From the NCBI GenBank assembly GCA_021162365.1, contig JAGGYW010000020.1:9154-73153 (forward strand): DNA of 64,000 nucleotides. The letters are read 5' to 3'. Both the position numbers and the translations under genes were made by a program. Below are positions 1 through 51,664 of the stretch, in pieces. The first letter of the stretch is position 1, and every line of letters begins with the position of its first letter. Source of the stretch: Nanobdellota archaeon (GTDB lineage: Archaea > Nanobdellota > Nanobdellia > CSSed11-243R1). The notes under the pieces were generated by a model. The model saw only the letters and a program-made list of their open reading frames with translations, did not search any database and had not been told where the DNA came from.

Positions 1-3000
1 ACACTTTCCATAGTGGAACCGATATAGATTGGATAAAATTCGAGTGTATACAAAATGAATCATACAATATTTCTGTGAGCGACTTAAATATCTACATTCA
101 GGTATATGTCCCTGATGGCTCCTCTCTCTCTTTAGATAGTTTTAACTACTACTATGATGGAAGCAGTTATAACATAAAGAGCTCGAAGGTCGTTTTTTAT
201 TGTAGCGAGAATAGCACGGTATATGTTAAATTAGAGTATAAATATTACGCAACAGCAACATACACTGTAAGTGTTATAAACACAAGTGTGCCAGCCAATG
301 AGTGGGATAACTACTACTTTAATGCTTCTTCAATTTCAACAGATGGTACATTGGTTTCAAAATCCTTCTCGTTCTTTTCTAATGATAAAGACTACTTCAA
401 ATTTGATGCAACTGCTGGAAGTATCTATGTAATTGAAACGAATAATGAGTCTGCAAATGTGGACACATATCTAACTCTTTTTGACACTGATGGAAAGACG
501 ATTATTAAAGAGAATGATGATGCTTCCGTTTATCTTAATTCAAGGATTGTGTGGAAGTGCCCTTCAGATGATACATACTACATTAGGGTTTGGGATAGAT
601 ATGGGAGAGAGGGAGATTATACACTTAAAGTATACTCCCCCACAATCACATCTCTACAGACAGATGGAACAAATGTAGGAAAAACATTTTCTAATGGGGA
701 TGCACACTACTTTAGTTTTTCAGCTACTACCGGCAACAGATATATTATAAAAACAATAAATACCTCCGCAAGCACAGATACTTATCTTAAAGTCTACAAT
801 TCCACATTTGATTTGGTCCAATACAATGATGATACATATTATACTGGCTTGCAAGATAAAAACTCATTGACGACAATATACGCGACAAATACGGACACTT
901 ATTATGTTGAAGTTTCAGACTACTATGTTGCTGGCGGAAGCTATGACATTTCTGTAGACTCGAATGTGCCGACCAAGTATAATGATAATTTTGAAGTTGA
1001 TGATGATTTCGCTCTTTCGAATTCAATTTCAGTTGACGGAACACCACAAACACATTCCTTTTATTACTATGGCGAATCCGATTTTGTCAATTTCTCTGCA
1101 ATTGCAGGAAACACATACAGAATTAAAACAGATAACATTGGTGGTAGAATAGTTGATACTTACTTGGTTCTCTACGATAGCAGTCATAAACTAATAGATT
1201 ATAATGATGACATTGGTAGTAGTTGCAGTCTAACCAACATAGACGATTGTCTTTCGGAGATTGACTTTACGCCAGACACATCAGGTGTTTATTATCTCAA
1301 GATTTGGGATATATCTTCTGCTGGAAATAACTACACCCTCTCTGTAGAACAAAACGGGACAATAACAACCACACTTGTAACACCTTCTGCAGATGTAAAT
1401 GTGACCAAGACCGGAATCTTTGAGTTTACTGTTAATGTTTCATGTAGTGGCGGGAGTTGTGGGGATGTTTCTGTTTATTTAGATCCAAAATATTCTGATA
1501 AAGTTGTGGAGAAGAAGGTATATGCCTCAAAAGAATTGCCAACAACAAGGGGAAGATACATCGTCATATTGAAGAATCCTTCCAGTGAATTTTCTACTTC
1601 ATCTGTAAGTTCTGATGTTAAATCCCTTCAGAAGAAGTTTTTGGATACAGCGCCAGATTTGAAGGTTGTCCGAGAGTATTCCTCATTCCCACTATTGTCT
1701 GTTGAATTAACAGGTGAGCAGCTAAGCGCGCTAAAGGACAATCCTTACATACTAGATGTAGTTCCGGATAGGGTTTTCCATGCTACATTAGATGAGAGTG
1801 TGCCACAAATAAAAGCAAATGATACTTGGAATGTTCAATATGCAAACACAAACATTACAGGATTATACCAAACGGTTTGCATACTTGATACAGGAGTTAA
1901 TTATTCTCATCCAGCACTAGCACATGCATATCTTGGTGGCTATGATTTTGTGAATAACGATAGTGATCCTATGGATGATTCTACTGGGAAAGCATATAGT
2001 CATGGGACACATGTTGCCGGTATAATTGTGTCTAATGACACTATCTACCGAGGCGTTGCTCCAAACGCTAAGTTTGTTGCTATTAAGGTTTTGAATTCAG
2101 TTGGTGGCGGGCAGGCGAGTGACATTCTCGCAGGCATTGATTGGTGTATTAACCATTCTTCACAATATAATATTTCTGTAATATCTATGAGTCTAGGTAC
2201 CGAAGGTGTTGGATGGAATGATACAACTTCGTGCGAGCAGGATAACAAAGAATGGATAGACCCCATCCAAACTGCTGTATCTAACGGTATCGCAGTTGTA
2301 GCTGCTTCAGGTAATGATGGATTCTCTGATAAGATAAATGCGCCAGCTTGCTTAGGGGATGTTATTTCTGTTGGTGCAGTTGACAAGAGCGATGAAGTGA
2401 CTAGTTATTCAAATGCAGCATCCATTTTAGATCTACTCGCTCCTGGAAGTGAAATAAATTCTACATGTAGAAATTGTGGATTTATGAGCATGTCTGGTAC
2501 ATCAATGGCAACACCACATGTTTCGGGAGCAATCTTGCTTTTGAATCAATATGAGAAGCTTCGTTTGGGTAGAAACTTAAAGCCAGACGAGGCATTAAAT
2601 TATCTAAAATCTTCTGGCAAGTCTATTTTAGATCCACGAAATGGGTTATCTTTCCCAAGGGTTGATGTGCTTGCAGCAGTTGAGCTTATGAATGGAACGA
2701 AAGATTTAGTGCCCATGGATTCGGGTACCCCATTCTTTACAACAACACACCCACAATACACAAACACAAGTCAAAACCCCTTTACAAATACTTGCCTTAG
2801 TAATATGAAAGATGGGGACTCATGTTTTGTTACATGGGTGGTTAATGCCACTGGAGCTGAAGATACTACATGGGAGTTTTATGCAGAATCAAAGGGTAAC
2901 TTTGCTGGAAGTGAATTAGATTCAATTTCCTCTAAAGTTAATGTGACTATAATCGCAGATGATTTGCCCCCAAATGTGGTTATAATATCTCCTCTAGATA

Positions 3001-5396
3001 GTCAAGTGTTTGGTAGGGGTGAAGTTCATATTAATGCGAGTTCAACGTGCCCTACCTCCCTTATTTCTCAGGTTTCATTTAAGCTTTTCAATTCAACAGG
3101 TGGGTTGGTGAAAAGCGGTAATTTAACAAAAGTTGTTGGAACATTCTATTGGAATACTTCATTTGATACAGCCAATCTAGCTTCTGGGGATTACATTCTA
3201 AATGTGACATCTGTTAATTCGCTAGGTAAATTGAGCTATGCTACGCGGGCAATAGTTATTGATGGTATTTCGCCAAATGTTATAATTCACACAAGTTACC
3301 CACAAAATTCTAGCACGCCTTATTTTAATTTCACAGCAACAGATGATCATAATCTAAGTTATGTATGGTATAAACTTAATGGAGTCGATGTTGCGAAGTA
3401 TCCTGCAAGCGGAACTTCTTTTTCAAGGAATGATACGCTTAATTTAAACTATCCCGGATGGAATTATGTTAAAATCTATGTAAATGATACCTCAAATAAT
3501 ACAATTAGTCGTATAAAAGAGTTTTATGAAATCTCTAAGATGAATGCAACTAAATGGGTGGATGAACACAACGCAACAATCTCCCCGAGTGGAGATGCAA
3601 TATGGAACAATCAAACATTTAACATATCTTTAAGTACAACACACTTTAACGTTACATTATATGATGTCAATGGAGAGCATGTTTGGTGGGATTATGATTT
3701 CTCTTTTGAGGAGAACAACACTGCCTTGAATAATATCACAGAAGATTATGGATTGACTCCCTACATAAACCTTTATCTTGATGAGAATTTAATTAGAGAT
3801 ACCATTTGCGATGGGGCTAACTGCGAGAATCTTACGAATAACGATTACGCAGAGGTTACCTTCTCTCCTAATTCGACAGGATATTATGCTATATACTCCT
3901 GTGGCAGGGGGATTCCAAGCGACTTTTCTTCATGTGAAAAGTTGGATGAATGTAACTCAACAAACAACATGAATTGTTATAATGATACTCCAACGAAAAC
4001 AATTGTTTACCTAAGTCGATTTTCGACATTAGTTGTAGTGAATGACACTACTCCGCCAAATGTTACTATAAATTCGCCAGAAGATAAAGCATATGATATA
4101 AGTAGTGGAATTTTGGTTAACGTTAGTTCTTCTCCAGATACAGTTGTATGTAATTATTCCATCGACAATGGAGCAAATAGTTCATTATCTAAGAATGGAG
4201 ATTATTTCATATCTACATTTGGTCCGATAAAAAATGGAAACCATAACCTGACTGTGTATTGTTGGGATGGTGCAGGTAATTTAGGGAATGATAGTGTTGA
4301 TTTCACAATTTATGATACTAACGCACCTTCAGTAAGTAGTGTGATTACGGATACTTCTAAGACAGCTGTGGAAATAGACTGGACAACAAATGAACCCTCA
4401 GATGGGAAAGTGACTCTTTATTCTGATAGTGCTTGTGGAAGTGAAAAGACATATAAAACAAGCAACACAATGTCACAGGCGCACTCACTAACGTTCGAGG
4501 ATTTATCCCCTGCTACAGATTACAGTTTTAAGGTCACATCAACTGATTATCAGGGAAATGAAGGCACTTCAATATGTTATACCTTTACAACAGATCCTCT
4601 TGAATCTCAGTCAGATGAAGGTGGAGGGGGTGGAGGAAATAGAACAACACAAACAGTAAGGGAAACTTTCTTCTGGAGCACTATCTCTCAAGGGGAGAGC
4701 GTTGTAGCAGATGTCAGAAGTGAATACATACCTGTAGATTCTTTAGAAATTTATTTGTCGAGTGAGATGATTAATGCAAAGTTGGAAGTCGAGTCCTATG
4801 ATGATAATCCACCACCAGGTGTACCTGAAGCACCCGTAGACATAATATACAAGTACTTTGGGATATCCACCAATTTTAATCAATACATAAATTGGATAAA
4901 GATAAAAATTAAAGTTCCAGCAAGTTGGTTTACTAACAATAACTATGACCCCAACAATGTTAGTTTGTATCATTACAGTTATATTTCTGAGAGGTGGGAA
5001 GAGGAGAATATAACTTATCTTGGTGAGTCAGATGGATATCACTTATATAGTGCCATAGTAAATAGCTTGTCTCCTTTTGCCATTTCTGCCGCAGAGCTTG
5101 AAGTCAAAGAATATTGTGGTAATGGAATATGTAACCAAAGTGCTGGCGAAAATTGTTCCACTTGCGAGGTAGATTGCGGGCTTTGTTTAACTAAAATCAT
5201 AAAAAATGAAACGCAAGGCAATTACACGGCAAGTTCCAACATTACTCCTCCCGAGAGCAATAATAACTTTGAAGTTGGATATTTTGAATATGTATTGATA
5301 GGTGTTGCTGTGGGGATAATTGGATTTTTTGTTATTCAGTTTAAATTACTGTCGAGGATGGAAAGACCAAAAAGAAAGAAGAGAAAGAGGCGATGA
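1..5396 (+). CDS. Surface-anchored subtilisin-like (S8) serine protease, 5'-partial (reading frame open to window start; ORF track start at 75 is an internal GTG)
   Basis: Catalytic triad motifs DTGVNYSHP (Asp), HGTHVAGII (His), GTSMATPHVSGA (Ser). Upstream I9-like propeptide. At least 4 N-terminal ~100-aa PPC-like repeats (pattern YYF..S...DG....SF.F.S..DYFKF.A.AG..Y.I.T.N.....DTYL.L.D..G.....NDD). Multiple Ig/FN3-like beta domains downstream. C-terminal TM helix followed by basic tail PKRKKRKRR. Very many N-x-S/T sequons. No stop codon in frame between nt 3 and 75. Confidence 0.85.
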   Translation, partial: TFHSGTDIDWIKFECIQNESYNISVSDLNIYIQVYVPDGSSLSLDSFNYYYDGSSYNIKSSKVVFYCSENSTVYVKLEYKYYATATYTVSVINTSVPANEWDNYYFNASSISTDGTLVSKSFSFFSNDKDYFKFDATAGSIYVIETNNESANVDTYLTLFDTDGKTIIKENDDASVYLNSRIVWKCPSDDTYYIRVWDRYGREGDYTLKVYSPTITSLQTDGTNVGKTFSNGDAHYFSFSATTGNRYIIKTINTSASTDTYLKVYNSTFDLVQYNDDTYYTGLQDKNSLTTIYATNTDTYYVEVSDYYVAGGSYDISVDSNVPTKYNDNFEVDDDFALSNSISVDGTPQTHSFYYYGESDFVNFSAIAGNTYRIKTDNIGGRIVDTYLVLYDSSHKLIDYNDDIGSSCSLTNIDDCLSEIDFTPDTSGVYYLKIWDISSAGNNYTLSVEQNGTITTTLVTPSADVNVTKTGIFEFTVNVSCSGGSCGDVSVYLDPKYSDKVVEKKVYASKELPTTRGRYIVILKNPSSEFSTSSVSSDVKSLQKKFLDTAPDLKVVREYSSFPLLSVELTGEQLSALKDNPYILDVVPDRVFHATLDESVPQIKANDTWNVQYANTNITGLYQTVCILDTGVNYSHPALAHAYLGGYDFVNNDSDPMDDSTGKAYSHGTHVAGIIVSNDTIYRGVAPNAKFVAIKVLNSVGGGQASDILAGIDWCINHSSQYNISVISMSLGTEGVGWNDTTSCEQDNKEWIDPIQTAVSNGIAVVAASGNDGFSDKINAPACLGDVISVGAVDKSDEVTSYSNAASILDLLAPGSEINSTCRNCGFMSMSGTSMATPHVSGAILLLNQYEKLRLGRNLKPDEALNYLKSSGKSILDPRNGLSFPRVDVLAAVELMNGTKDLVPMDSGTPFFTTTHPQYTNTSQNPFTNTCLSNMKDGDSCFVTWVVNATGAEDTTWEFYAESKGNFAGSELDSISSKVNVTIIADDLPPNVVIISPLDSQVFGRGEVHINASSTCPTSLISQVSFKLFNSTGGLVKSGNLTKVVGTFYWNTSFDTANLASGDYILNVTSVNSLGKLSYATRAIVIDGISPNVIIHTSYPQNSSTPYFNFTATDDHNLSYVWYKLNGVDVAKYPASGTSFSRNDTLNLNYPGWNYVKIYVNDTSNNTISRIKEFYEISKMNATKWVDEHNATISPSGDAIWNNQTFNISLSTTHFNVTLYDVNGEHVWWDYDFSFEENNTALNNITEDYGLTPYINLYLDENLIRDTICDGANCENLTNNDYAEVTFSPNSTGYYAIYSCGRGIPSDFSSCEKLDECNSTNNMNCYNDTPTKTIVYLSRFSTLVVVNDTTPPNVTINSPEDKAYDISSGILVNVSSSPDTVVCNYSIDNGANSSLSKNGDYFISTFGPIKNGNHNLTVYCWDGAGNLGNDSVDFTIYDTNAPSVSSVITDTSKTAVEIDWTTNEPSDGKVTLYSDSACGSEKTYKTSNTMSQAHSLTFEDLSPATDYSFKVTSTDYQGNEGTSICYTFTTDPLESQSDEGGGGGGNRTTQTVRETFFWSTISQGESVVADVRSEYIPVDSLEIYLSSEMINAKLEVESYDDNPPPGVPEAPVDIIYKYFGISTNFNQYINWIKIKIKVPASWFTNNNYDPNNVSLYHYSYISERWEEENITYLGESDGYHLYSAIVNSLSPFAISAAELEVKEYCGNGICNQSAGENCSTCEVDCGLCLTKIIKNETQGNYTASSNITPPESNNNFEVGYFEYVLIGVAVGIIGFFVIQFKLLSRMERPKRKKRKRR

Positions 5397-5959
5397 ATCC
5401 AATGAAAAGAGTATTCTTAGGGATCAAAATTCCGCAGGGTGTTTCAAAAGAGGTGTCCCTTTTTCAAAAAGAGTTGAAGAAGATTGATATTGATGCTAAG
5501 TTTGTTGAGGAAGAAAATTTACATATTAATCTTAAGTTTTTTGGCTCCCAGAGTGATGAGATAATTGACAAAATAATAGATGTTGTCAGTAATGTTGTGA
5601 AAGAATTTCAAGGTTTTAAGGTAACCCTCAAGGGAGTGGGTGCTTTTCCAAGTCAAAATTTTATACGGGTTGTCTGGATCGGCGTTCTTTCCAAAGAACT
5701 ACATGAGCTGTTCAACAGATTAGAGGAAAGGTTTGTTGAAATAGGCATCCTTAGTGAAGGTAGAGAATTCACACCACATCTTACGCTTGCGAGGTTGAGA
5801 TCACAAAAAAATAAAAATTTATTAATTGAAAAAATAAGAAGTAGCACAAACAAAGAGTTTGGTGAATTTTTTGTTTCGGAGATATATTTGATTGAAAGCA
5901 AGCTTTCGCCAAAAGGTCCAACATATTCGGATGTGAAAGTTTTCAGGTTAGGAAAATGA
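5393..5959 (+). CDS. 2H phosphoesterase, LigT/ThpR-like (RNA 2',3'-cyclic phosphodiesterase / 2'-5' RNA ligase family)
   Basis: About 185 aa. Two H-x-T/S-x-like motifs (LHINLKF and PHLTLARL) at the expected spacing. ATGA overlap with the upstream stop. Confidence 0.55.
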   Translation: MNPMKRVFLGIKIPQGVSKEVSLFQKELKKIDIDAKFVEEENLHINLKFFGSQSDEIIDKIIDVVSNVVKEFQGFKVTLKGVGAFPSQNFIRVVWIGVLSKELHELFNRLEERFVEIGILSEGREFTPHLTLARLRSQKNKNLLIEKIRSSTNKEFGEFFVSEIYLIESKLSPKGPTYSDVKVFRLGK

Positions 5960-37679: not shown

Positions 37680-38639
37680 TCAGCTAAATAACAGTGGCGT
37701 CACACTCACTTCAAGTAATGCACCAATTATTAACAGCAACACAGCTAATGCAATTAAGTCAAAAGAATCAAGCACAATTTCATAAAACTTTGGGTCCTTA
37801 TAATCTGACTTAACAACAGCGGCAGAAATTATTCCTCCCGCGATTGCTCCAAGGAAATAGGCACCTATCTCCGGGAGGCCATGTATCATGTATCTTGCTA
37901 CACCGAGAGAACTGGCTTTGAAGTATGCGGAGACTCCACCACCTAATGTACCTATTTGTCTCTTGATGAAGTTGCCCATAGCTACTGCAAGTATGCTTGA
38001 GTTCCATGCGAGGATAAATATTGCTCCTGCACCGTATAAAAATGAGAATAACAAGGAGAATAAAAGCACCTTGAAATTATTTAGCAGTATAATCTTTAAA
38101 CTTTCTTCTGCTGTGAAGGCACCTTGGATTGCACTTCCTGAGAAATTTGAAGGACCCAATATTGAAGTGATAGTTTTAATTTGCTTAGAGAAAAGTAAAT
38201 TTACTGTTTCGCTGGGGAGGAAAATATATGTGAATATAAACAATACTAAAAATCCAAAGAACATATAAGTGAACACTAAAAATACATCCATGTGTGATCT
38301 TATCAGTGGCATTTTTTTCGCAATTTTTAGGGTCTCCATTTCCTCTTCTTCTTCCACTGTTAGCACATTTATCAGAAGTGGAAGTGCGGCGAGCGTTGTA
38401 AGGAAAATTATAGAAATGCTTGGATCATCGGGAAATATAAAATATGCAAGAACGACAGCTACTGCAGCATAAAATATTCCTAGCATGAATGCGCTTGTTG
38501 GTTTTTCTCTGACATGTGTTGGGCTTAAAATGTTTTCTAAAACCATAAACAAAATTAAAAAAAGAAAAGTTATATAGCTTACTGAATTAATTTTTTGTAT
38601 GGGTGTTAATTTAAAGGACCTCATACTTGCGAAAGACAT
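37680..38639 (-). CDS. DUF95/SpoIIM-family polytopic membrane protein
   Basis: Conserved HGLPEIGAYFLGAIAGG motif of DUF95. The start is uncertain: 38639 would overlap the divergent fen start, and an internal Met near 38549 is plausible. Confidence 0.5.
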   Translation of the reverse strand: MSFASMRSFKLTPIQKINSVSYITFLFLILFMVLENILSPTHVREKPTSAFMLGIFYAAVAVVLAYFIFPDDPSISIIFLTTLAALPLLINVLTVEEEEEMETLKIAKKMPLIRSHMDVFLVFTYMFFGFLVLFIFTYIFLPSETVNLLFSKQIKTITSILGPSNFSGSAIQGAFTAEESLKIILLNNFKVLLFSLLFSFLYGAGAIFILAWNSSILAVAMGNFIKRQIGTLGGGVSAYFKASSLGVARYMIHGLPEIGAYFLGAIAGGIISAAVVKSDYKDPKFYEIVLDSFDLIALAVLLLIIGALLEVSVTPLLFS

Positions 38640-39609
38640 CAGGCTTAAAGATCTTTCTGGAAAAAAAATTGGAATAGATGCGTATAACTGGACCTATCAA
38701 TTCCTTTCCACCATACGACTAAGGACAGGTGAGCTTTTAACGGATAGTAAGGGAAGGGTGACCTCCCACCTAATTGGGATATTCAACAGGACAATTAACT
38801 TGTTAAGAGAGGGAATAAAACCTGTCTATGTTTGGGATGGAGCGCCCCCTCCATTTAAACACAAAACTTTGGAGGAGAGAGAAAGGATTAAACAAAGAGC
38901 TGAGGAGGCGTTTAAAAAGGCTGAAACCGAAGAAGAGAGAAGGAAGTATGCACAGCAAATCTCACGCCTGACAGAGGATATGATTTCTGACGCAAACAAA
39001 CTTCTTGAATTGATGGGTGTTCCGTACTTAAATGCCCCAAGTGAAGGTGAAGCACAGATTTCACACATGGTTTCCAGGGGAGATTTATGGGCTTGTGCAT
39101 CTCAGGACTGGGATTCCCTGCTTTTTGGCAGTAAAATACTTGTTAGGAATCTTTCTATCTCAGGGAAAAAGAAATTACCACGTACCAGAATTTTTAGGAC
39201 TATCAATCCTCAGATAATTTTGTTGGATGAAAATTTGAGGAGACTTGGTATAAGTAGGGAGCAGTTAATTATAATTGGCATGTTGATAGGCACTGACTAC
39301 TGCAGCGGTGTTAGAGGATTCGGTCCGAAGAAGTCTTTAGAGCTTGTTAAAAAGGAGAGAACATTAGATAATGTGTTGAAGGTTGTTAAATGGGAGTGCG
39401 AAGCAGACCCACACAAAATTTTTGATTGGTTTTTGCATCCAAAGGTGACAGATAACTATTCTTTAGAATGGGAAGAAATAGATAAGGAGAAGTTGACTAA
39501 ATTCTTAGTTGATGAGCATGATTTTAGCTTGGAGAGGGTTGAAAGTCAATTGAAGCAAATCTCGGAAGAAAACACTAAGCAAACAGGTTTAGGTAAATTT
39601 TTAAAGTAG
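38599..39609 (+). CDS. fen: Flap endonuclease 1
   Basis: N-terminal MGVNLKDLI...KKIGIDAYNWTYQFL (XPG-N), XPG-I acidic residues and helix-hairpin-helix region; 336 aa. Confidence 0.9.
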   Translation: MGVNLKDLILAKDIRLKDLSGKKIGIDAYNWTYQFLSTIRLRTGELLTDSKGRVTSHLIGIFNRTINLLREGIKPVYVWDGAPPPFKHKTLEERERIKQRAEEAFKKAETEEERRKYAQQISRLTEDMISDANKLLELMGVPYLNAPSEGEAQISHMVSRGDLWACASQDWDSLLFGSKILVRNLSISGKKKLPRTRIFRTINPQIILLDENLRRLGISREQLIIIGMLIGTDYCSGVRGFGPKKSLELVKKERTLDNVLKVVKWECEADPHKIFDWFLHPKVTDNYSLEWEEIDKEKLTKFLVDEHDFSLERVESQLKQISEENTKQTGLGKFLK

Positions 39610-39628
39610 CAATTAACTCTTTCTTTTC

Positions 39629-40444
39629 ATGGTTAATAACACATTTGTAGAGGTAATATTGTCAGCTCTTCCTGGTGAGGGAATCTTGCCATATATTGCA
39701 ACTTTTTTAATTATACTTTTCTTCGGATGGATAACAGGCAAAATCATAAGATGGGTTGTACATAAGATTTTACACATTGTTGGTGTTGATAAATTCACAA
39801 AATCAACAAATAGAGTAGTTAGTAAGTTAGGATATCGGGGAACAACAGTTGACTTTGTTTCCGACTTATGTAAATGGGTGGTTTATTTAATTTTTATTAG
39901 CATTGCAGCCCAGCTAATATTTGGTGAGCAGCTTTTAAGTAATATGCTCCTATCCACCATGACATACCTACCAAAAGTAGTTGTTGCAATTATTTTCATA
40001 ATTGGTGGTTTAATAATTGGGGACCTTCTTGGAGCAATTGTTTCAAACCTAGTTAGCAGATTCCCATTAAAACTGGAAGAAAAGAGTCTAATTGTTTCAT
40101 TATCTTCAGCGGTCACTAAAGTTTTGGTTGTACTTGTCGCCATAGTAATTGCGCTTAATGTTATTGGAGTGTATGTAGAGATACTAACAGTTGGATTTGG
40201 TATAATTGCACTGACAATATCTTTGTTTATTCTAATTGGCACAAAGGATTTGGCAATTAATATTTTTGCAGGGATGTACCTCCATTCTTTTAAAAATTTC
40301 AGAAAGGGAATAAACGTGGAAGTTGATGGAATAAGGGGAACAATTAAAGAGATAGGTTTAGTTTTTACAACAATAACAAACGGAAAGAGTGAGTTTCATA
40401 TCCCCAATTACATTTTTATGAGGAAGAGCTTTGTGATTAAGTGA
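39629..40444 (+). CDS. Small-conductance mechanosensitive channel (MscS family)
   Basis: Three N-terminal TM helices plus C-terminal MscS beta-domain (GINVEVDGIRGTIKEIGLVFTTITNGKSEFHIPN). Confidence 0.75.
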   Translation: MVNNTFVEVILSALPGEGILPYIATFLIILFFGWITGKIIRWVVHKILHIVGVDKFTKSTNRVVSKLGYRGTTVDFVSDLCKWVVYLIFISIAAQLIFGEQLLSNMLLSTMTYLPKVVVAIIFIIGGLIIGDLLGAIVSNLVSRFPLKLEEKSLIVSLSSAVTKVLVVLVAIVIALNVIGVYVEILTVGFGIIALTISLFILIGTKDLAINIFAGMYLHSFKNFRKGINVEVDGIRGTIKEIGLVFTTITNGKSEFHIPNYIFMRKSFVIK

Positions 40445-40448
40445 TATT

Positions 40449-40814
40449 ATGAAAAAGGTAGTAATTGGATTAGTTGAGCCTGTAAAGGTTATTGGTAAGA
40501 AAAGGGCAGTTAAACTTTTAGCAAAAATTGATACTGGCGCAGCAAGGAGTAGCTTAGATGAGGGAGTTGCAGAGCAACTTGATTTGGGACCCGTTGTTAA
40601 GTTTGTAAGGGTAAAATCTGCTGTTGCGGATAAGATGTACGATAGGCGCCCGGTTTACAGAGCAAGAATTGAAATTGGTGGTAAAAAAATTCCAGTCGAA
40701 ATAAGTACTGCAGATAGAAGAAGGTTGAAGTATAAGATGATTATTGGTAGAGACATTCTTCGTTCTAATTTCATAGTTGATGTAGAACACACATATAAGA
40801 CTGTTAAGAGGTGA
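40449..40814 (+). CDS. RimK-associated retropepsin-like putative protease (Pfam Zn_protease/DUF785)
   Basis: 121 aa with a DTGAARSS motif in the position of the DUF785 aspartyl-protease-like fold. Immediately upstream of two ATP-grasp genes. Confidence 0.6.
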   Translation: MKKVVIGLVEPVKVIGKKRAVKLLAKIDTGAARSSLDEGVAEQLDLGPVVKFVRVKSAVADKMYDRRPVYRARIEIGGKKIPVEISTADRRRLKYKMIIGRDILRSNFIVDVEHTYKTVKR

Positions 40815-41692
40815 CTATGGTAAACTTACTTGTTTTAGCGCCAAGGAAGAAGTCTATTTCCACAGATATGTTGATTTCGGCAGCTAAAAGAATGTTTAAG
40901 AGAGTAGATTTTGTGCCGTTGAGAGAAGTTTCACTTGAAGTGTCAGATAAATTTGGTGTGTTACATGATGAAATTTCTCTTTTAGATTATGATTATGTTC
41001 TCCCACGAATCGATTCAAAGCACGCAAGTTTTGGATACCACATAATTAAGATGCTTGATTTCTTTGATGTGAAAAAACCTTATCCAGCAGAGAGCATATT
41101 AATTGCTCACAATAAATTTGCCACAATATTTGAAGCAAAAAAGAATGGCGTACCCGTTCCACGCACCATTTATACTTTCTCACAAAAGTCTGCAAATGAA
41201 ACAATACACCGTATGAGTTTTCCTGTAGTAGTTAAATTGGTAAGCTCTTTCGGTGGGAAGGGTGTTCTTTTTGTTGAAGGGGAAACTGCCGCAAGGAGTG
41301 TTTTCAAGACGATGGATGTTTTAAAACAAGATTTACTGATAGAGGATTATATAGAAAACCCTGGAGAAGACATACGTGGAATTGTTGCAGGGGACGAGAT
41401 TGTAGGTAGTTTCAAGAGGGTCGCAAGAAAAGGAGAGAAACGTTCTAATTTTTTCCTTGGTGGGAAGCCAAAGGAGTATACCTTAACCGAGGAAGAGAAG
41501 GAGATTTGTTTCAAGGCAGCAGAGGCAGTTAAGTCAAAAATAGTAGCGGTGGATATGATACAAAGTAAAGAAGGACCAAAGGTTATTGAGGTTAATTTAA
41601 ATCCAGGGATAAAGGCAATGGCGCAGACAGAAACAGGTAAGGATGTGGCTAAAAAAATAGTTCGTTTTTGCCATAATGAAACAAAGAGGTAA
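40811..41692 (+). CDS. RimK-family ATP-grasp ligase (alpha-L-glutamate ligase-like)
   Basis: ATP-grasp motifs: glycine-rich loop SSFGGKGVLFV, catalytic region ...DMIQSKEGPKVIEVNLNPG. Confidence 0.75.
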   Translation: MTMVNLLVLAPRKKSISTDMLISAAKRMFKRVDFVPLREVSLEVSDKFGVLHDEISLLDYDYVLPRIDSKHASFGYHIIKMLDFFDVKKPYPAESILIAHNKFATIFEAKKNGVPVPRTIYTFSQKSANETIHRMSFPVVVKLVSSFGGKGVLFVEGETAARSVFKTMDVLKQDLLIEDYIENPGEDIRGIVAGDEIVGSFKRVARKGEKRSNFFLGGKPKEYTLTEEEKEICFKAAEAVKSKIVAVDMIQSKEGPKVIEVNLNPGIKAMAQTETGKDVAKKIVRFCHNETKR

Positions 41693-41695
41693 GTT

Positions 41696-42583
41696 ATGAG
41701 AATTTGTTATGTTGGCCAAAATAGTAAGAAAGAAACTGACGAGCTCCTTATTAGTAACTTTAAGGAGCTGGGTGAAGTTAAGTATGTCAAAATATCTAAT
41801 ATCTCCCTTCTTATAGATGGTGGGATCAACTTTGTATATGAGTATGAAGATTTGTCTAAATTCAATATCATCTTTTTTAGGGTCCCCCGCTCTAAGTATA
41901 CATTGGCGGCTTCAATTCTTGAGGCGCTCCCAGAGAGTGTGATTCACTTAAATTCGCCGAGGTCGTTTTACAACGCATCTTCTCGCTTGTCTTTATATCG
42001 GAATTTATCCCATGCAGGAATTAATGTCCCCAAAGTAATCTTTGCGGACAACCCTCAAACATCCATTTTTGATTTGAAACTTTTGAGATTCCCAATTTTG
42101 ATAAAGGTCCCGACAGATAAAAACAAAGTTATGCTTGCAAATTCCCAGCAAGAAGCAAAGTCTATGGTAGATGCACTTCAGGTGTTGGAGCAACCGATAC
42201 TTTTTGAAGAGTATTATCCAGAGGCGAGAGTTATTCAAGCGTATGTTTTGGGGGATGAGGTGATTGCAACGCTAGTTAAAGACCCCGAAGATATAAATTA
42301 TGCTGGTGGGGAAGTTAAGAAGCACACACCTTCTAAAAAGATAATACGGACGGCATTAGATGTTGCAAATGCTCTAAATGCAGAATACATGCGTGTAGAT
42401 ATATTAGATACAGCCAGACCAATTGTAATTGATGTTAATTTGTGTCCTTTTTTAAGTGAGGCAATTAAAGCTAGTGGTGTTGATATTGCAAAAAAAGTTG
42501 CGTCTTATCTAAAGTCAAAGTATGAATCTATAGAGAATGCATCAAAACTTTTTGATGAGGTAAAATCAATGTTTACTCCTTGA
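41696..42583 (+). CDS. Divergent RimK-like ATP-grasp paralog with degenerate glycine-rich loop
   Basis: Same overall ATP-grasp layout (…RVDILDTARPIVIDVNLCP) but the glycine-rich phosphate-binding loop is replaced by KVPTDKNKVMLA. Confidence 0.55.
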   Translation: MRICYVGQNSKKETDELLISNFKELGEVKYVKISNISLLIDGGINFVYEYEDLSKFNIIFFRVPRSKYTLAASILEALPESVIHLNSPRSFYNASSRLSLYRNLSHAGINVPKVIFADNPQTSIFDLKLLRFPILIKVPTDKNKVMLANSQQEAKSMVDALQVLEQPILFEEYYPEARVIQAYVLGDEVIATLVKDPEDINYAGGEVKKHTPSKKIIRTALDVANALNAEYMRVDILDTARPIVIDVNLCPFLSEAIKASGVDIAKKVASYLKSKYESIENASKLFDEVKSMFTP

Positions 42584-43205
42584 AACCATATTTGCCAATT
42601 AACGGCACGAACACAAACGGACCCAAATCAATCTTTTCTATATTTTTCTTTTTAATGATGAGCATCAACCTTTGTAAGTGTTCTTTTTCTCCAACTGGGA
42701 TGACCATCCTCCCCCCAAATGAGAGTTGGTCTACTAAAACTTCTGGGATTTTTGGTGCACATGCGGTAACAATAATACAATCAAACGGTGCTTTTTCTTT
42801 TAGTCCTTCACTACCATCGCCGTGTATAACTTCCACATTTTTGTAATTCCTTAAATTCTTCTTTGCAAATTCAACAAGCTCCTTTATTCGCTCAATAGTG
42901 TATACTTTGCCCGGCTTTACTATCTCTGCTAATATTGCAGCTTGATAACCGCTACCTGTTCCTATCTCTAAAACTTTATCTCCTTTATGTGGCTGTAGTG
43001 CTTCAGTCATGATTGCTACGGTTGTTGGTTGTGAAATTGTTTGTCCTGCAAGAATTGGAAGCGGCTGGTCAACATACGCTAACTTTTTGTATTCATTGAC
43101 ACAAAAATCCTTCCTATCTACTTTTAAGAATGCTGAGATTATTTCTTTTGTCTTCAAACTACCATTGCTTACCAAATGATTTACAAGCTCTTCGTTTGAA
43201 TTCAT
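42573..43205 (-). CDS. pcm: Protein-L-isoaspartate O-methyltransferase
   Basis: SAM motif LEIGTGSGYQAAILAEIV and the PIMT-typical N-terminal QTISQP and C-terminal regions. Confidence 0.85.
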   Translation of the reverse strand: MNSNEELVNHLVSNGSLKTKEIISAFLKVDRKDFCVNEYKKLAYVDQPLPILAGQTISQPTTVAIMTEALQPHKGDKVLEIGTGSGYQAAILAEIVKPGKVYTIERIKELVEFAKKNLRNYKNVEVIHGDGSEGLKEKAPFDCIIVTACAPKIPEVLVDQLSFGGRMVIPVGEKEHLQRLMLIIKKKNIEKIDLGPFVFVPLIGKYGFKE

Positions 43206-44137
43206 CTTAACATACCTCTTATAATTACATCCGTGGCTTCTCCTTCAGTAAGTCCTTTTGACATAAGTGATTCAAGCTGTTTCCTATTTACCTTACCTAA
43301 AGAAGCTTCATGGGTTACTCTAGCGTTCTTGTTATATACCTCAACGATAGGGATTGCTGAGATTTTCCCGTTTCCTTCAATTATTTCAGTGCAATCAACA
43401 TGCCCAACACTTCCATCCCCTATACCTTTCATCACGCTCTTAACAATACATGAGGAATTTTCTGCTGTAGCAACTCTGCTCTTAAGAAGCCCGTGGGAAT
43501 TCCTCCCAGCTAGCTCCATATACTCTATGATAGAAATTATATCTTTCTTCTTGCCAAAAGCTTTTGTGCACACATCCCCACGTGCATTGTCCAACAATAT
43601 AATTTTATAATTCAACTCTAGCCTGCCCAACACCCCTTCCTTTGAAGCAAAAATAGATTTATATGACGCCCTATCTCCTGCCTCAATTTCAACATCTGCT
43701 TTTACGTGTGCACCGTGTTTTCCATGAAAATGCTCTTCTTCATAAATTAACTTTGAGTTTTTACCAATTTCGAACTTGCCTTTCATGAAGTGCTTAACAT
43801 CTTTTGAGTTTGGGAAGAAACAATGCGACAAAATTTTCATTTCCGAATTGGACTCCATTTTCAAATTAACAATTATCCTTTGCGCCCATTCTTTTTTTAT
43901 CACACCCATACACATATGAACAGGAATTTTTAATTTTACATTTCTCTTTAGAATTAAATCAATATAAATTGAACTTCCCCTTTTTCTCGTGTTTATAATT
44001 AATCCTTCTATATCTTTTTTATCCAAAACTTTGCTCTCATTAATTATCACTCTCGGACTAGATAGCAAATCTTCTGAAACAAAACCACTTTTCTCATACT
44101 CTTCTATAAACTTTTTGAATTCTTCTTCGAAATTCAT
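43202..44137 (-). CDS. SufB/SufD-family Fe-S cluster assembly protein (short archaeal SufBD)
   Basis: Beta-helix core and conserved C-terminal segment (KGLTEGEATDVIIRGML). Operon with sufC (4-nt overlap). Confidence 0.7.
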   Translation of the reverse strand: MNFEEEFKKFIEEYEKSGFVSEDLLSSPRVIINESKVLDKKDIEGLIINTRKRGSSIYIDLILKRNVKLKIPVHMCMGVIKKEWAQRIIVNLKMESNSEMKILSHCFFPNSKDVKHFMKGKFEIGKNSKLIYEEEHFHGKHGAHVKADVEIEAGDRASYKSIFASKEGVLGRLELNYKIILLDNARGDVCTKAFGKKKDIISIIEYMELAGRNSHGLLKSRVATAENSSCIVKSVMKGIGDGSVGHVDCTEIIEGNGKISAIPIVEVYNKNARVTHEASLGKVNRKQLESLMSKGLTEGEATDVIIRGMLR

Positions 44138-48580: not shown

Positions 48581-48946
48581 TTATCTTACTATGACTTTTC
48601 CTGTCATTTCTGGATTAAACTCAGATGAGTAAATATACACCCCACTTTCATCAAATACGTGTTCATATCTCTCGTTTGGAAGTAATATTGGACTTTTGAA
48701 ATCCGCGCCGACAACCCTTTGCCTAGTTTCACATTTATTTACCCATACTATTTTATCGCCTGCATTAATTGTGATTTCTTCTGGAGTGAATCCCTCGTCT
48801 TCTATGAGAATGGTGTTGGTTCCACCATACTTCTCAGGCTCATTAAATATTCTTACTCTTTCTTCGGGGTATACCATTATTAGATATACTATAAACAATG
48901 CAATTAGAGCTGCAATTATTATTGAAGCTATTGGTGTTTTTCCCAT
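48581..48946 (-). CDS. Membrane-anchored cupredoxin-like small protein lacking canonical Cu ligands
   Basis: N-terminal TM anchor. The pattern F.PEEITINAGDKIVWVN....Q....D.......G.Y.Y.S..NPEMTGKVIV resembles plastocyanin-type beta-sandwiches, but His/Cys/His ligands are absent. Confidence 0.3.
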   Translation of the reverse strand: MGKTPIASIIIAALIALFIVYLIMVYPEERVRIFNEPEKYGGTNTILIEDEGFTPEEITINAGDKIVWVNKCETRQRVVGADFKSPILLPNERYEHVFDESGVYIYSSEFNPEMTGKVIVR

Positions 48947-51118: not shown

Positions 51119-51393
51119 AGAAGCTTTTCATAAATTTTTTTTATTATTTCTTTTGCTTTTTCTTCATCTTTAATTTCTTTGACTAGAACTCTACCATCCT
51201 TGAATATATTGATTGTGTATTTGTTTTTCGCAATTATCATGTCCTTTAGGGATAGTTTTATTTCGTATCCTTCCTTTTTGAGAATTTCCTTAGCTTTTGA
51301 CATATCTATCTTTACTAACTTCTTGACAACTCCTTGGAAGGCTGCGCCGGTTGTACAAGGTTTGAATATATAATAGTTACTCTTCATTTTCAA
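51115..51393 (-). CDS. Hypothetical small protein
   Basis: 92-aa K-rich ORF in an operon-like arrangement; no family recognised. Confidence 0.3.
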   Translation of the reverse strand: MKMKSNYYIFKPCTTGAAFQGVVKKLVKIDMSKAKEILKKEGYEIKLSLKDMIIAKNKYTINIFKDGRVLVKEIKDEEKAKEIIKKIYEKLL

Positions 51394-51664
51394 TTATCCT
51401 TACAGGGCTTTCCCCCCATTTGTATTCAATGTTTATGTCATCGAGCTTCTTTTTCCACTTTCTTAAATCCATATCTTCTGGCTCAAATATTAGAATAACT
51501 TCATCTGTTTCTGCATAAATACGAAGTACGTTTCCTTTGTCACTTGTATCTAAGTTTATGTAAAACTTTGGATTATCAAGCCTTCCAAACTCTTTTTGGA
51601 ATTCATCCCAGTCATAAATTATTTTTGCTTCCATCCTTTCACCTTCTTTGACATGTAGTACCAT
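51377..51664 (-). CDS. Hypothetical small protein
   Basis: 95-aa ORF overlapping neighbours by a few codons; no family recognised. Confidence 0.3.
   Translation of the reverse strand: MVLHVKEGERMEAKIIYDWDEFQKEFGRLDNPKFYINLDTSDKGNVLRIYAETDEVILIFEPEDMDLRKWKKKLDDINIEYKWGESPVRIIENEE

Follow-up and report, generated by a model that had tools for sequence, protein, structure and literature searches.

What does a RimK-type ligase do in a tiny symbiotic archaeon when its gene stands between that of a protease and a degenerate copy of itself? The question is raised by a Nanobdellota archaeon (assembly GCA_021162365.1), of which we analysed 64,000 nucleotides (nt) of contig JAGGYW010000020.1 (positions 9,154 to 73,153, hereafter the window). 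An earlier note, made from the sequence alone, had described three co-oriented, tightly spaced genes at 40449-42583 and had proposed that they form a write/erase system for C-terminal amino-acid tails. The open reading frames (ORFs) lie where that note had placed them, all on the forward strand: a protease gene (40449-40814, 121 aa), a RimK ligase gene (RimK1, 40811-41692, 293 aa from a GTG codon, although the ATG at 40817, giving 291 aa as in the orthologues, is the likelier start) and a degenerate RimK paralogue (RimK2, 41696-42583, 295 aa). The spacing is -4 nt between the protease and RimK1 genes (+2 nt with the ATG start) and 3 nt between RimK1 and RimK2. The trio is thus real, but the unit is larger than had been supposed, since an MscS-like channel gene directly upstream (39629-40444, forward strand, 271 aa), 4 nt from the protease gene, belongs to it. 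The locus is best read as an operon of four genes from a DPANN archaeon of the Nanoarchaeota type, which encode, in this order, the MscS-like channel, a RimB-like retropepsin, RimK1 and RimK2. This operon represents an archaeal version of the RimK/RimB system of bacteria, in which tails are written and trimmed.

The ligase, its degenerate paralogue and the protease

RimK1 is, as had been claimed, a canonical RimK-type ATP-grasp ligase. It matches Pfam family PF08443 (RimK) at 2e-39 (135.6 bits vs a cut-off of 21), scores above the cut-offs of the NCBIfam model TIGR00768 (175.3 vs 143.4 bits) and of Rimk_N (28.3 vs 26.4 bits), and matches RimK crystal structures at 1e-34 with 33-35% identity. 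For a census of functional residues we took the Pseudomonas RimK of PDB entry 7qys as reference, with the numbering of E. coli RimK, and compared 10 RimK1 orthologues, 46 RimK2-type sequences from three sub-clades and 24 canonical RimKs. Residues K100, K141, G148, G150, D187, R189, R203, R211 and N213 are kept in all 10 RimK1 orthologues, as are G217/G218, D248, E260 and N262; the window protein has every one of them, and the same catalytic positions are kept in 24/24 canonical RimKs. RimK1 is predicted to be an active ATP-grasp α-L-amino-acid ligase, most likely using glutamate as substrate. It fell short of the equivalog model for bS6--L-glutamate ligase, NF007764 (129.8 bits vs a cut-off of 331), and its best NCBIfam match after the generic RimK model is MptN (136.2 bits).

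RimK2 belongs to the same family (PF08443 at 9.7e-18, 64.9 bits vs a cut-off of 21), but it misses the full-length family model TIGR00768 (86.7 vs 143.4 bits). Its residues 137-148, KVPTDKNKVMLA, correspond to K141-LVEGTQGIGVVLA in E. coli RimK; the segment is two residues shorter and contains no glycine, the Gly-rich loop being replaced by PTDKNK, and the equivalents of D187, R189 and R211 are gone. The replaced loop had been the basis for calling this protein degenerate, a claim that survives proper alignment: in the census, D187, R211, N213 and E260 are each found in 0/46 RimK2-type sequences (with D, G or N in place of E260), G148 in 1/46, R189 in 4/46 and D248 in 24/46, and in one sub-clade (clade B) the whole 203-216 segment is deleted. 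Other positions are largely retained, namely K141 (K or R in 43/46), E178 (40/46), R64 (R or K in 37/46) and S14 (S or T in 37/46). In a published structure, ADP is contacted by K141, E178, I180, F210, S212 and N213, and poly-glutamate by S7, R8, S14, R64, S68, R189 and N262 (PMC10092738). Having lost the Gly-rich phosphate loop and the arginines for the γ- and acyl-phosphate, RimK2 is probably unable to ligate. The sub-clade to which the window protein belongs nonetheless keeps the Mg ligands D235, D246 and N248, together with K137 and the EEY hinge, so "degenerate" here means the loss of phosphate and transition-state residues and not necessarily of nucleotide binding.

RimK2 is not a decaying pseudogene but a protein under selection, as indicated by a nearly invariant loop, a broad family and an intact fold. 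The 16 closest homologues (50-100% identity) show hardly any change in the loop and its flanks, FPILIKVPTDKKKVMLANSQQEAKSMVDALQVLEQP, and P139, T140 and K144 of the replacement loop are invariant throughout the window sub-clade. An exhaustive profile search of 1.84 billion representatives returned 27 clusters below 1e-30, the degenerate residue pattern occurs in about 30 clusters, and all named members of the family are DPANN archaea (Nanoarchaeota, Woesearchaeota, Parvarchaeota, Aenigmarchaeota, Nanohaloarchaea or "DPANN group"). The AlphaFold2 (AF2) model shows a complete RimK fold (predicted local distance difference test score, pLDDT, 91; predicted template-modelling score, pTM, 0.88), for which Foldseek ranked the RimK structures 5zct, 7qyr and 7qys at the top (template-modelling (TM) scores 0.80-0.83, identity 23-26%), above ArgX and LysX (TM 0.70-0.76, identity 17-18%). 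A C-terminal helix and tail past the ATP-grasp core are conserved as well. RimK1 and RimK2 share 21% identity, which points to an old duplication. In the same genome pairs, RimK2 proteins are 72/50/30/20% identical, vs 85/75/49/45% for RimK1; this faster yet constrained evolution is the pattern expected of a non-catalytic partner.

The first gene of the trio encodes, as the earlier note had stated, a 121-aa protein of the RimK-associated protease family with a DTGA motif. It matches PF05618 (formerly DUF785, "Zn_protease", now RimB-like) at 4.6e-13 (49.7 bits vs a cut-off of 27). DTGA occupies residues 28-31, with the catalytic D28; all 22 homologues compared share this motif together with R67 and R90, and at position 26 they have K or R. 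By motif correspondence, K26, R67 and R90 match the K-x-D(-T-G), R-P-V and D-R motifs of RloA and RimB, whose residues coordinate poly-Glu in those enzymes (PMC12239564). The AF2 model (pLDDT 88) retrieved first the DUF785 protein Lpg0085 and RloA/RloA2 (2pma, 9g58 and 9g59) in Foldseek, with HIV-1 protease and Ddi1 ranked next. A hydrophobic signal segment is missing from the N-terminus, MKKVVIGLVEP, so the protease should be cytoplasmic like RimB. On the RimB equivalog NF052261 it reached 33.3 bits vs a cut-off of 200, and with the RloA1-3 models it stayed far below their cut-offs.

Recurrence of the cluster and its channel gene

Contigs of diverse RimK2 members were retrieved and their ORFs classed with custom hidden Markov models (HMMs); a scan of genome contigs with one of the alignments gave the close clade only (5 loci). 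The order protease, RimK1, RimK2 is found in nine distinct loci including the window. One of them, L008, whose RimK2 has 30% identity to that of the window, carries the trio in different, unrelated surroundings. Given its recurrence in eight further distinct loci, the trio arrangement is not due to chance. RimK2 adjoins a catalytically complete RimK1 in 12 of 13 distinct loci, and 9 of these 12 also have a channel orthologue alongside, in either of two gene orders and with frames that overlap or abut. In the window and five related lineages, an MscS-like gene (261-275 aa) lies directly 5' of the protease gene and in L005 overlaps it. In L017-L019, contigs labelled Aenigmarchaeota, DPANN-group and Nanohaloarchaea, the order is RimK2, RimK1, MscS-like; there the RimK2 and RimK1 frames share 8 nt, the channel gene directly adjoins RimK1, and no protease gene occurs within 5 kb. 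The conserved DPANN core is hence RimK plus pseudo-RimK, with or without the MscS-like protein, and the protease is confined to one branch. A switch between the two arrangements needs several rearrangements that preserve the cluster, which speaks for a functional connection between the genes.

The channel protein matches PF05552, for transmembrane-helix repeats (4.7e-14, 52.4 bits vs 22), and PF00924, for the pore helix and β-domain (2.7e-07, 31 bits vs 20.2), and aligns to MscS structures at 5e-10 to 5e-11. Its profile covers only residues 24-172 of the 286 of E. coli MscS, that is, the transmembrane helices, pore helix and β-domain; the C-terminal α/β domain that completes the MscS vestibule is absent, the protein ending at the equivalent of about residue 172. 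This truncation does not imply loss of function, because heptameric structures of 171-aa MscS proteins have been solved. The channel proteins of both arrangements align end to end and score 314-378 bits against a common HMM, vs 42-74 bits for other MscS proteins, which identifies them as orthologues. A metagenome scan with the MscS-like alignment yielded only four MscS proteins, all distant (42-74 bits) and none encoded near a RimK gene, and was uninformative on the association.

Two further observations concern variants of the cluster. On the archaeal-type contig L009 (5001-6469), a protease gene is accompanied by a single canonical RimK of 361 aa, with a C-terminal extension of ~70 aa, and by no pseudo-ligase; RimKs of ~360 aa are the best canonical matches to the RimK2 profile, and the extension may fill the role of RimK2. 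In L017 (3231-4757), L018 (3424-4848) and L019 (2-1429), all on the reverse strand, a gene for a fusion of an MtrA-like protein and thymidylate synthase lies divergently upstream of RimK2-RimK1-MscS; this could be a hint of a pterin cofactor or plain synteny of close relatives.

The window itself is archaeal in character, and its RimK2 matches, at 100% identity, a hypothetical protein from a Nanoarchaeota metagenome-assembled genome. The GC content is flat along the whole window (0.35-0.37, about 36%), which rules out a horizontally acquired island; an anti-phage defence system was likewise discarded, as PADLOC gave no matches for any of the four proteins. An Rfam search of 38000-44000 for structured RNAs or riboswitches gave no matches. 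A TATA-like AT-rich box, aaatttttaaag (39595-39606, forward strand), lies ~28 nt 5' of the MscS-like ATG and is a possible promoter of a leaderless four-gene transcript, in a genome that is 64% A+T. On the same strand, the Shine-Dalgarno-like AGAGGTGA (40807-40814) overlaps the protease stop codon 2 nt before the RimK1 ATG at 40817 and may be an internal ribosome-binding site of a polycistronic mRNA, and AGAGGT (41685-41690) stands 5 nt before the RimK2 ATG. Read in this way, the AGAGGT(GA) motifs before RimK1 and RimK2 would fit a leaderless first gene followed by internal genes led by Shine-Dalgarno sequences.

Neighbouring genes encode FEN1, AglB, a SpoIIM-like protein, PIMT, SufBD/SufC, MnmA and an HD protein. 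The gene for PIMT (protein-L-isoaspartate O-methyltransferase; 42573-43205, reverse strand) converges with RimK2, the two 3' ends sharing 11 nt, and is found in most syntenic loci but not all. A gene of the "phage metallopeptidase" family (PF18894; 48189-48578, reverse strand) and a cupredoxin-like gene (48581-48946, reverse strand) form a pair that is kept in all syntenic relatives. At the left edge of the window lies a large ORF (75-5396, forward strand, 1773 aa) with the basic tail ...KRKKRKRR.

Acceptor, proposed mechanism and rival explanations

To our knowledge, bS6 is a bacterial ribosomal protein that archaea lack. It cannot be the acceptor of RimK1 in such organisms, and either a new acceptor or free poly-α-glutamate would have to be involved. 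Candidate tails were sought in the window. The only acidic-tailed ORF of realistic size encodes 95 aa (51377-51664, reverse strand) with no Pfam family and ends in ...RIIENEE, which recalls the acidic tail of bS6; the 3' end of a GNAT acetyltransferase gene overlaps with this ORF, and one protein ending in EE among ~70 window genes is near chance expectation. The scan also gave a 55-aa ORF (5320-5487) that lies inside the ORF 75-5396. The SpoIIM-like membrane protein encoded two genes upstream (37680-38639, reverse strand) has an internal EEEEE run just past a transmembrane segment, partly conserved in its orthologues (EEEEE, EEE-TE, EQEEE, EEEE). This run is a weak candidate substrate: RimB and RloA cut internal poly-Glu, but RloA needs at least eight Glu.

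We propose that RimK1 would extend a carboxylate, either a protein C-terminus or free glutamate or oligo-glutamate, with α-linked glutamate through an acyl-phosphate intermediate. RimK2 would be a non-catalytic protomer that replaces some subunits of the normally homotetrameric RimK and serves as scaffold, substrate holder or regulator; the adjacency of the two genes suggests such a heteromer. RimK2 retains its adenine-side residues (the EEY hinge and K137) along with the equivalents of two poly-Glu contacts, S14 and R64. The protease, a putative homodimer like RimB and RloA, would cut the poly-α-glutamate product and so set its length. Coupling to the channel might serve the control of a glutamate or poly-glutamate pool, or the glutamylation of a channel-associated target, in osmotic stress. 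Taken as a whole, this model of RimK1 as writer, RimK2 as non-catalytic partner and the protease as trimmer, in a module tied to a membrane channel, seems to us about evenly poised between right and wrong. A bolder version, which we offer tentatively and consider rather doubtful, is a DPANN-specific machine of writer, pseudo-writer and eraser: an obligate heteromer of RimK and the first pseudo-enzyme of the RimK family, coupled to a minimal MscS-like channel, that would glutamylate a channel-associated protein or store glutamate as osmotically silent poly-α-glutamate. If it exists, such a machine would give ultra-small cells a fast osmotic or host-attachment response.

Several observations weigh against the writer-and-trimmer model. 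Among window ORFs of at least 30 aa, no small protein with an acidic tail is encoded near the module. The protease is missing from the second gene arrangement, and the core function can therefore do without trimming; in the trio lineages L003, L006 and L008 no MscS-like gene occurs within 5-6 kb. In L016, the sole exception to the pairing, a RimK2-type gene (5001-5900) is solitary: it is flanked by a 209-aa ORF and a HIT-family gene, and none of the genes for RimK1, the protease or the MscS-like channel occurs less than 5 kb away. Most loci of the window type share their overall synteny and are therefore not independent observations, and DPANN genomes are so compact that tight spacing alone carries little weight. 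Finally, N201 of RimK2 in the window sub-clade could replace N213 with an alignment shift of one residue, and with its Mg ligands kept, residual or altered activity of this protein is possible.

The absence of a nearby channel gene from three trio lineages also speaks for a rival account, in which the MscS-like gene is a mere neighbour and the trio acts on a protein of the cytosol, such as a ribosomal or translation factor, without any membrane or osmotic link. Bacterial RimBK offers the precedent, as RimK acts there on the ribosome (PMC4741518, PMC7343187). Distantly related DPANN lineages nevertheless have orthologous channel genes next to the RimK pair, arranged in two ways and with ORFs that overlap or abut, and adjacency kept through several rearrangements suggests selection for adjacency. 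We regard the neighbour account as unlikely, though worth keeping in mind.

A second alternative retains RimK2 as an enzyme whose chemistry or specificity has changed, so that it would add another residue or start the chain for RimK1, using its Lys-rich loop and Mg ligands. Paired RimK-family paralogues can both be active, as in LysX/ArgX of the Sulfolobus type (3vpb and 3vpd, both among the structural matches), and the conservation in RimK2 of K137, E171/E172, D235, D246 and N248, along with the invariant P139, T140 and K144 of the window sub-clade, is what such an enzyme would show. No replacement residue, however, is conserved over the three sub-clades (D248 becomes N, T or S and E260 becomes G or N), clade B has dispensed with the entire 203-216 segment, and R189 and R211 are gone although all 24 canonical RimKs and all 10 RimK1s keep them. 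An altered enzyme is thus improbable, and we continue to favour a non-catalytic RimK2.

Alternatively, RimK2 might itself be the acceptor or carrier, with RimK1 glutamylating its C-terminal tail, as LysX does on LysW, and the protease resetting it. The conserved helix and tail beyond the ATP-grasp core would suit this role, and in two other sub-clades 8 of 10 sequences end in Glu (...RWKSHE, ...DLLE), among them RimK2 of L017 (5001-5885), L018 (5001-5885) and L019 (1599-2483) as well as P0188 and P0189. Because a terminal Glu is what RimK and LysX extend, RimK2 could be an acceptor in these lineages. Members of the window sub-clade end instead in ...MFTP, ...ENF or ...DVF, without Glu, and a full RimK fold of 295 aa would be an odd carrier with no biochemical precedent. 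We judge this possibility quite improbable.

It is similarly improbable that a small-molecule cofactor is what the two RimK proteins glutamylate, in the manner of MptN with tetrahydromethanopterin and CofF with F420, while the protease and channel genes are unrelated neighbours. In its favour are the rank of MptN among the NCBIfam matches of RimK1 (136 bits, next after generic RimK) and the pterin-dependent enzyme encoded by the MtrA-thymidylate synthase fusion directly upstream in L017-L019; this ThyA neighbour, however, is seen in one set of closely related loci only. RimK1 misses the equivalog cut-offs by wide intervals (MptN, 136.2 vs 350; CofF, 89.9 vs 300; LysX, 125.8 vs 275.6 bits), neither the window nor its syntenic relatives contain genes of cofactor biosynthesis, and a dedicated, putative endopeptidase of the poly-Glu type with translational coupling argues for a peptide product.

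The LysX/ArgX amino-group-carrier pathway of lysine or arginine biosynthesis, which the RimK-family fold and the presence of LysX, ArgX and LysW complexes among the structural matches might bring to mind, is highly implausible and was rejected, since the LysX equivalog is missed, structural likeness to LysX and ArgX is lower than to RimK, no LysW-like acidic-tailed Zn-ribbon is found among window ORFs of at least 30 aa, and no LysY/Z/J/K-type genes lie in the 64 kb or the syntenic loci. The earlier remark that neither LysW and lysine-biosynthesis genes nor methanogen-cofactor genes are nearby is borne out in the window and in the syntenic loci. That note had also named two findings that would speak against its reading, a second paralogue with all its ATP-binding residues or a LysX-ArgX system with LysW nearby, and the analysis turned up neither.

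Relation to known systems

The idea of a write/erase pair of RimK and a DUF785 protease is not new, being known from RimK/RimB of Pseudomonas (PMC7343187, PMC11957791). New here, in DPANN archaea, are a pseudo-ligase conserved as partner and the connection with an MscS-like channel gene. In the literature searched, with subscription-only papers outside its scope, we found no earlier account of a degenerate RimK paralogue, of a RimK-MscS association or of the DPANN module. RimK/RimB has so far been bacterial and centred on bS6, so that the operon would place the same chemistry in organisms without this protein. The degenerate paralogue would be the first pseudo-enzyme partner of a RimK-type ligase and would offer a clean system for the study of non-catalytic ATP-grasp subunits. 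The recurrent MscS-like linkage, together with the osmotic phenotype of rlo, leads to a testable hypothesis that ties glutamate polymerisation to osmotic control. DPANN genomes have undergone heavy reduction, and the keeping of a module of three or four genes therefore implies that it matters to their biology.

Among known channels, the channel protein resembles minimal MscS (the core of E. coli MscS and 171-aa structures such as 9sdg) in its pore-lining third transmembrane helix and β-domain. It differs in having ~100 extra N-terminal residues with PF05552 helices and in clustering with RimK genes. MptN and CofF of methanogens are, like RimK1 and RimK2, archaeal members of the RimK family, and they add α-linked Glu. 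Unlike the DPANN proteins, which score well below their cut-offs, they act on cofactors and are encoded by stand-alone genes with no protease or pseudo-paralogue. The LysX/ArgX-LysW systems of Thermus, Sulfolobus and Thermococcus also rely on RimK-family ligases, there acting on a protein C-terminal Glu, and some archaea have them as pairs of paralogues. Both paralogues are active in those systems, however, and LysW and lysYZJK are clustered there and absent here, where the equivalog scores are missed as well.

For the membrane link, the nearest analogue would be rloABC of P. aeruginosa, which comprises a retropepsin, a membrane protein with an inactive enzyme domain and an ATP-grasp protein and is needed for tolerance of hypo-osmotic stress (PMC12239564). 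Both operons combine a PF05618 protease (RloA), an ATP-grasp protein (RloC) and an integral membrane protein (RloB, with seven transmembrane helices and an inactive transglutaminase), and in both one component has an enzyme fold that is catalytically inactive; the hypo-osmotic link belongs to rloABC. RloA is secreted, in contrast to the DPANN protease, which has no signal peptide. The DPANN membrane partner is MscS-like and not of transglutaminase fold, no transglutaminase domain was detected in the DPANN operon with Pfam, and the presumed dead component is the ligase paralogue. No orthology extends past the protease and ATP-grasp families, so the relation would be one of analogy only and not of membership in RloABC.

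RimK/RimB (RimABK) of Pseudomonas shares more. There, too, a RimK-family ligase is encoded beside a retropepsin-like protease of PF05618 with a DTG site, cytoplasmic in Pseudomonas and predicted to be so here; the basic residues of the K-x-D, RPV and DR motifs have counterparts by motif, and writer and trimmer would follow the same logic. Pseudomonas RimB strips Glu from poly-glutamylated bS6 and stimulates the synthesis of poly-α-Glu by RimK (PMC11957791, PMC7343187), and RimB-RimK fusion proteins exist, in a survey that covered bacteria only (PMC11957791). The DPANN module differs in being archaeal, without a bS6 acceptor and without RimA or control by cyclic di-GMP. Its protease has 121 aa, compared with ~150 aa for Pseudomonas RimB, and reaches 33 of the 200 bits set by the RimB equivalog. 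Above all, the DPANN operon adds to the ligase and protease a conserved degenerate RimK paralogue and an MscS-like channel gene.

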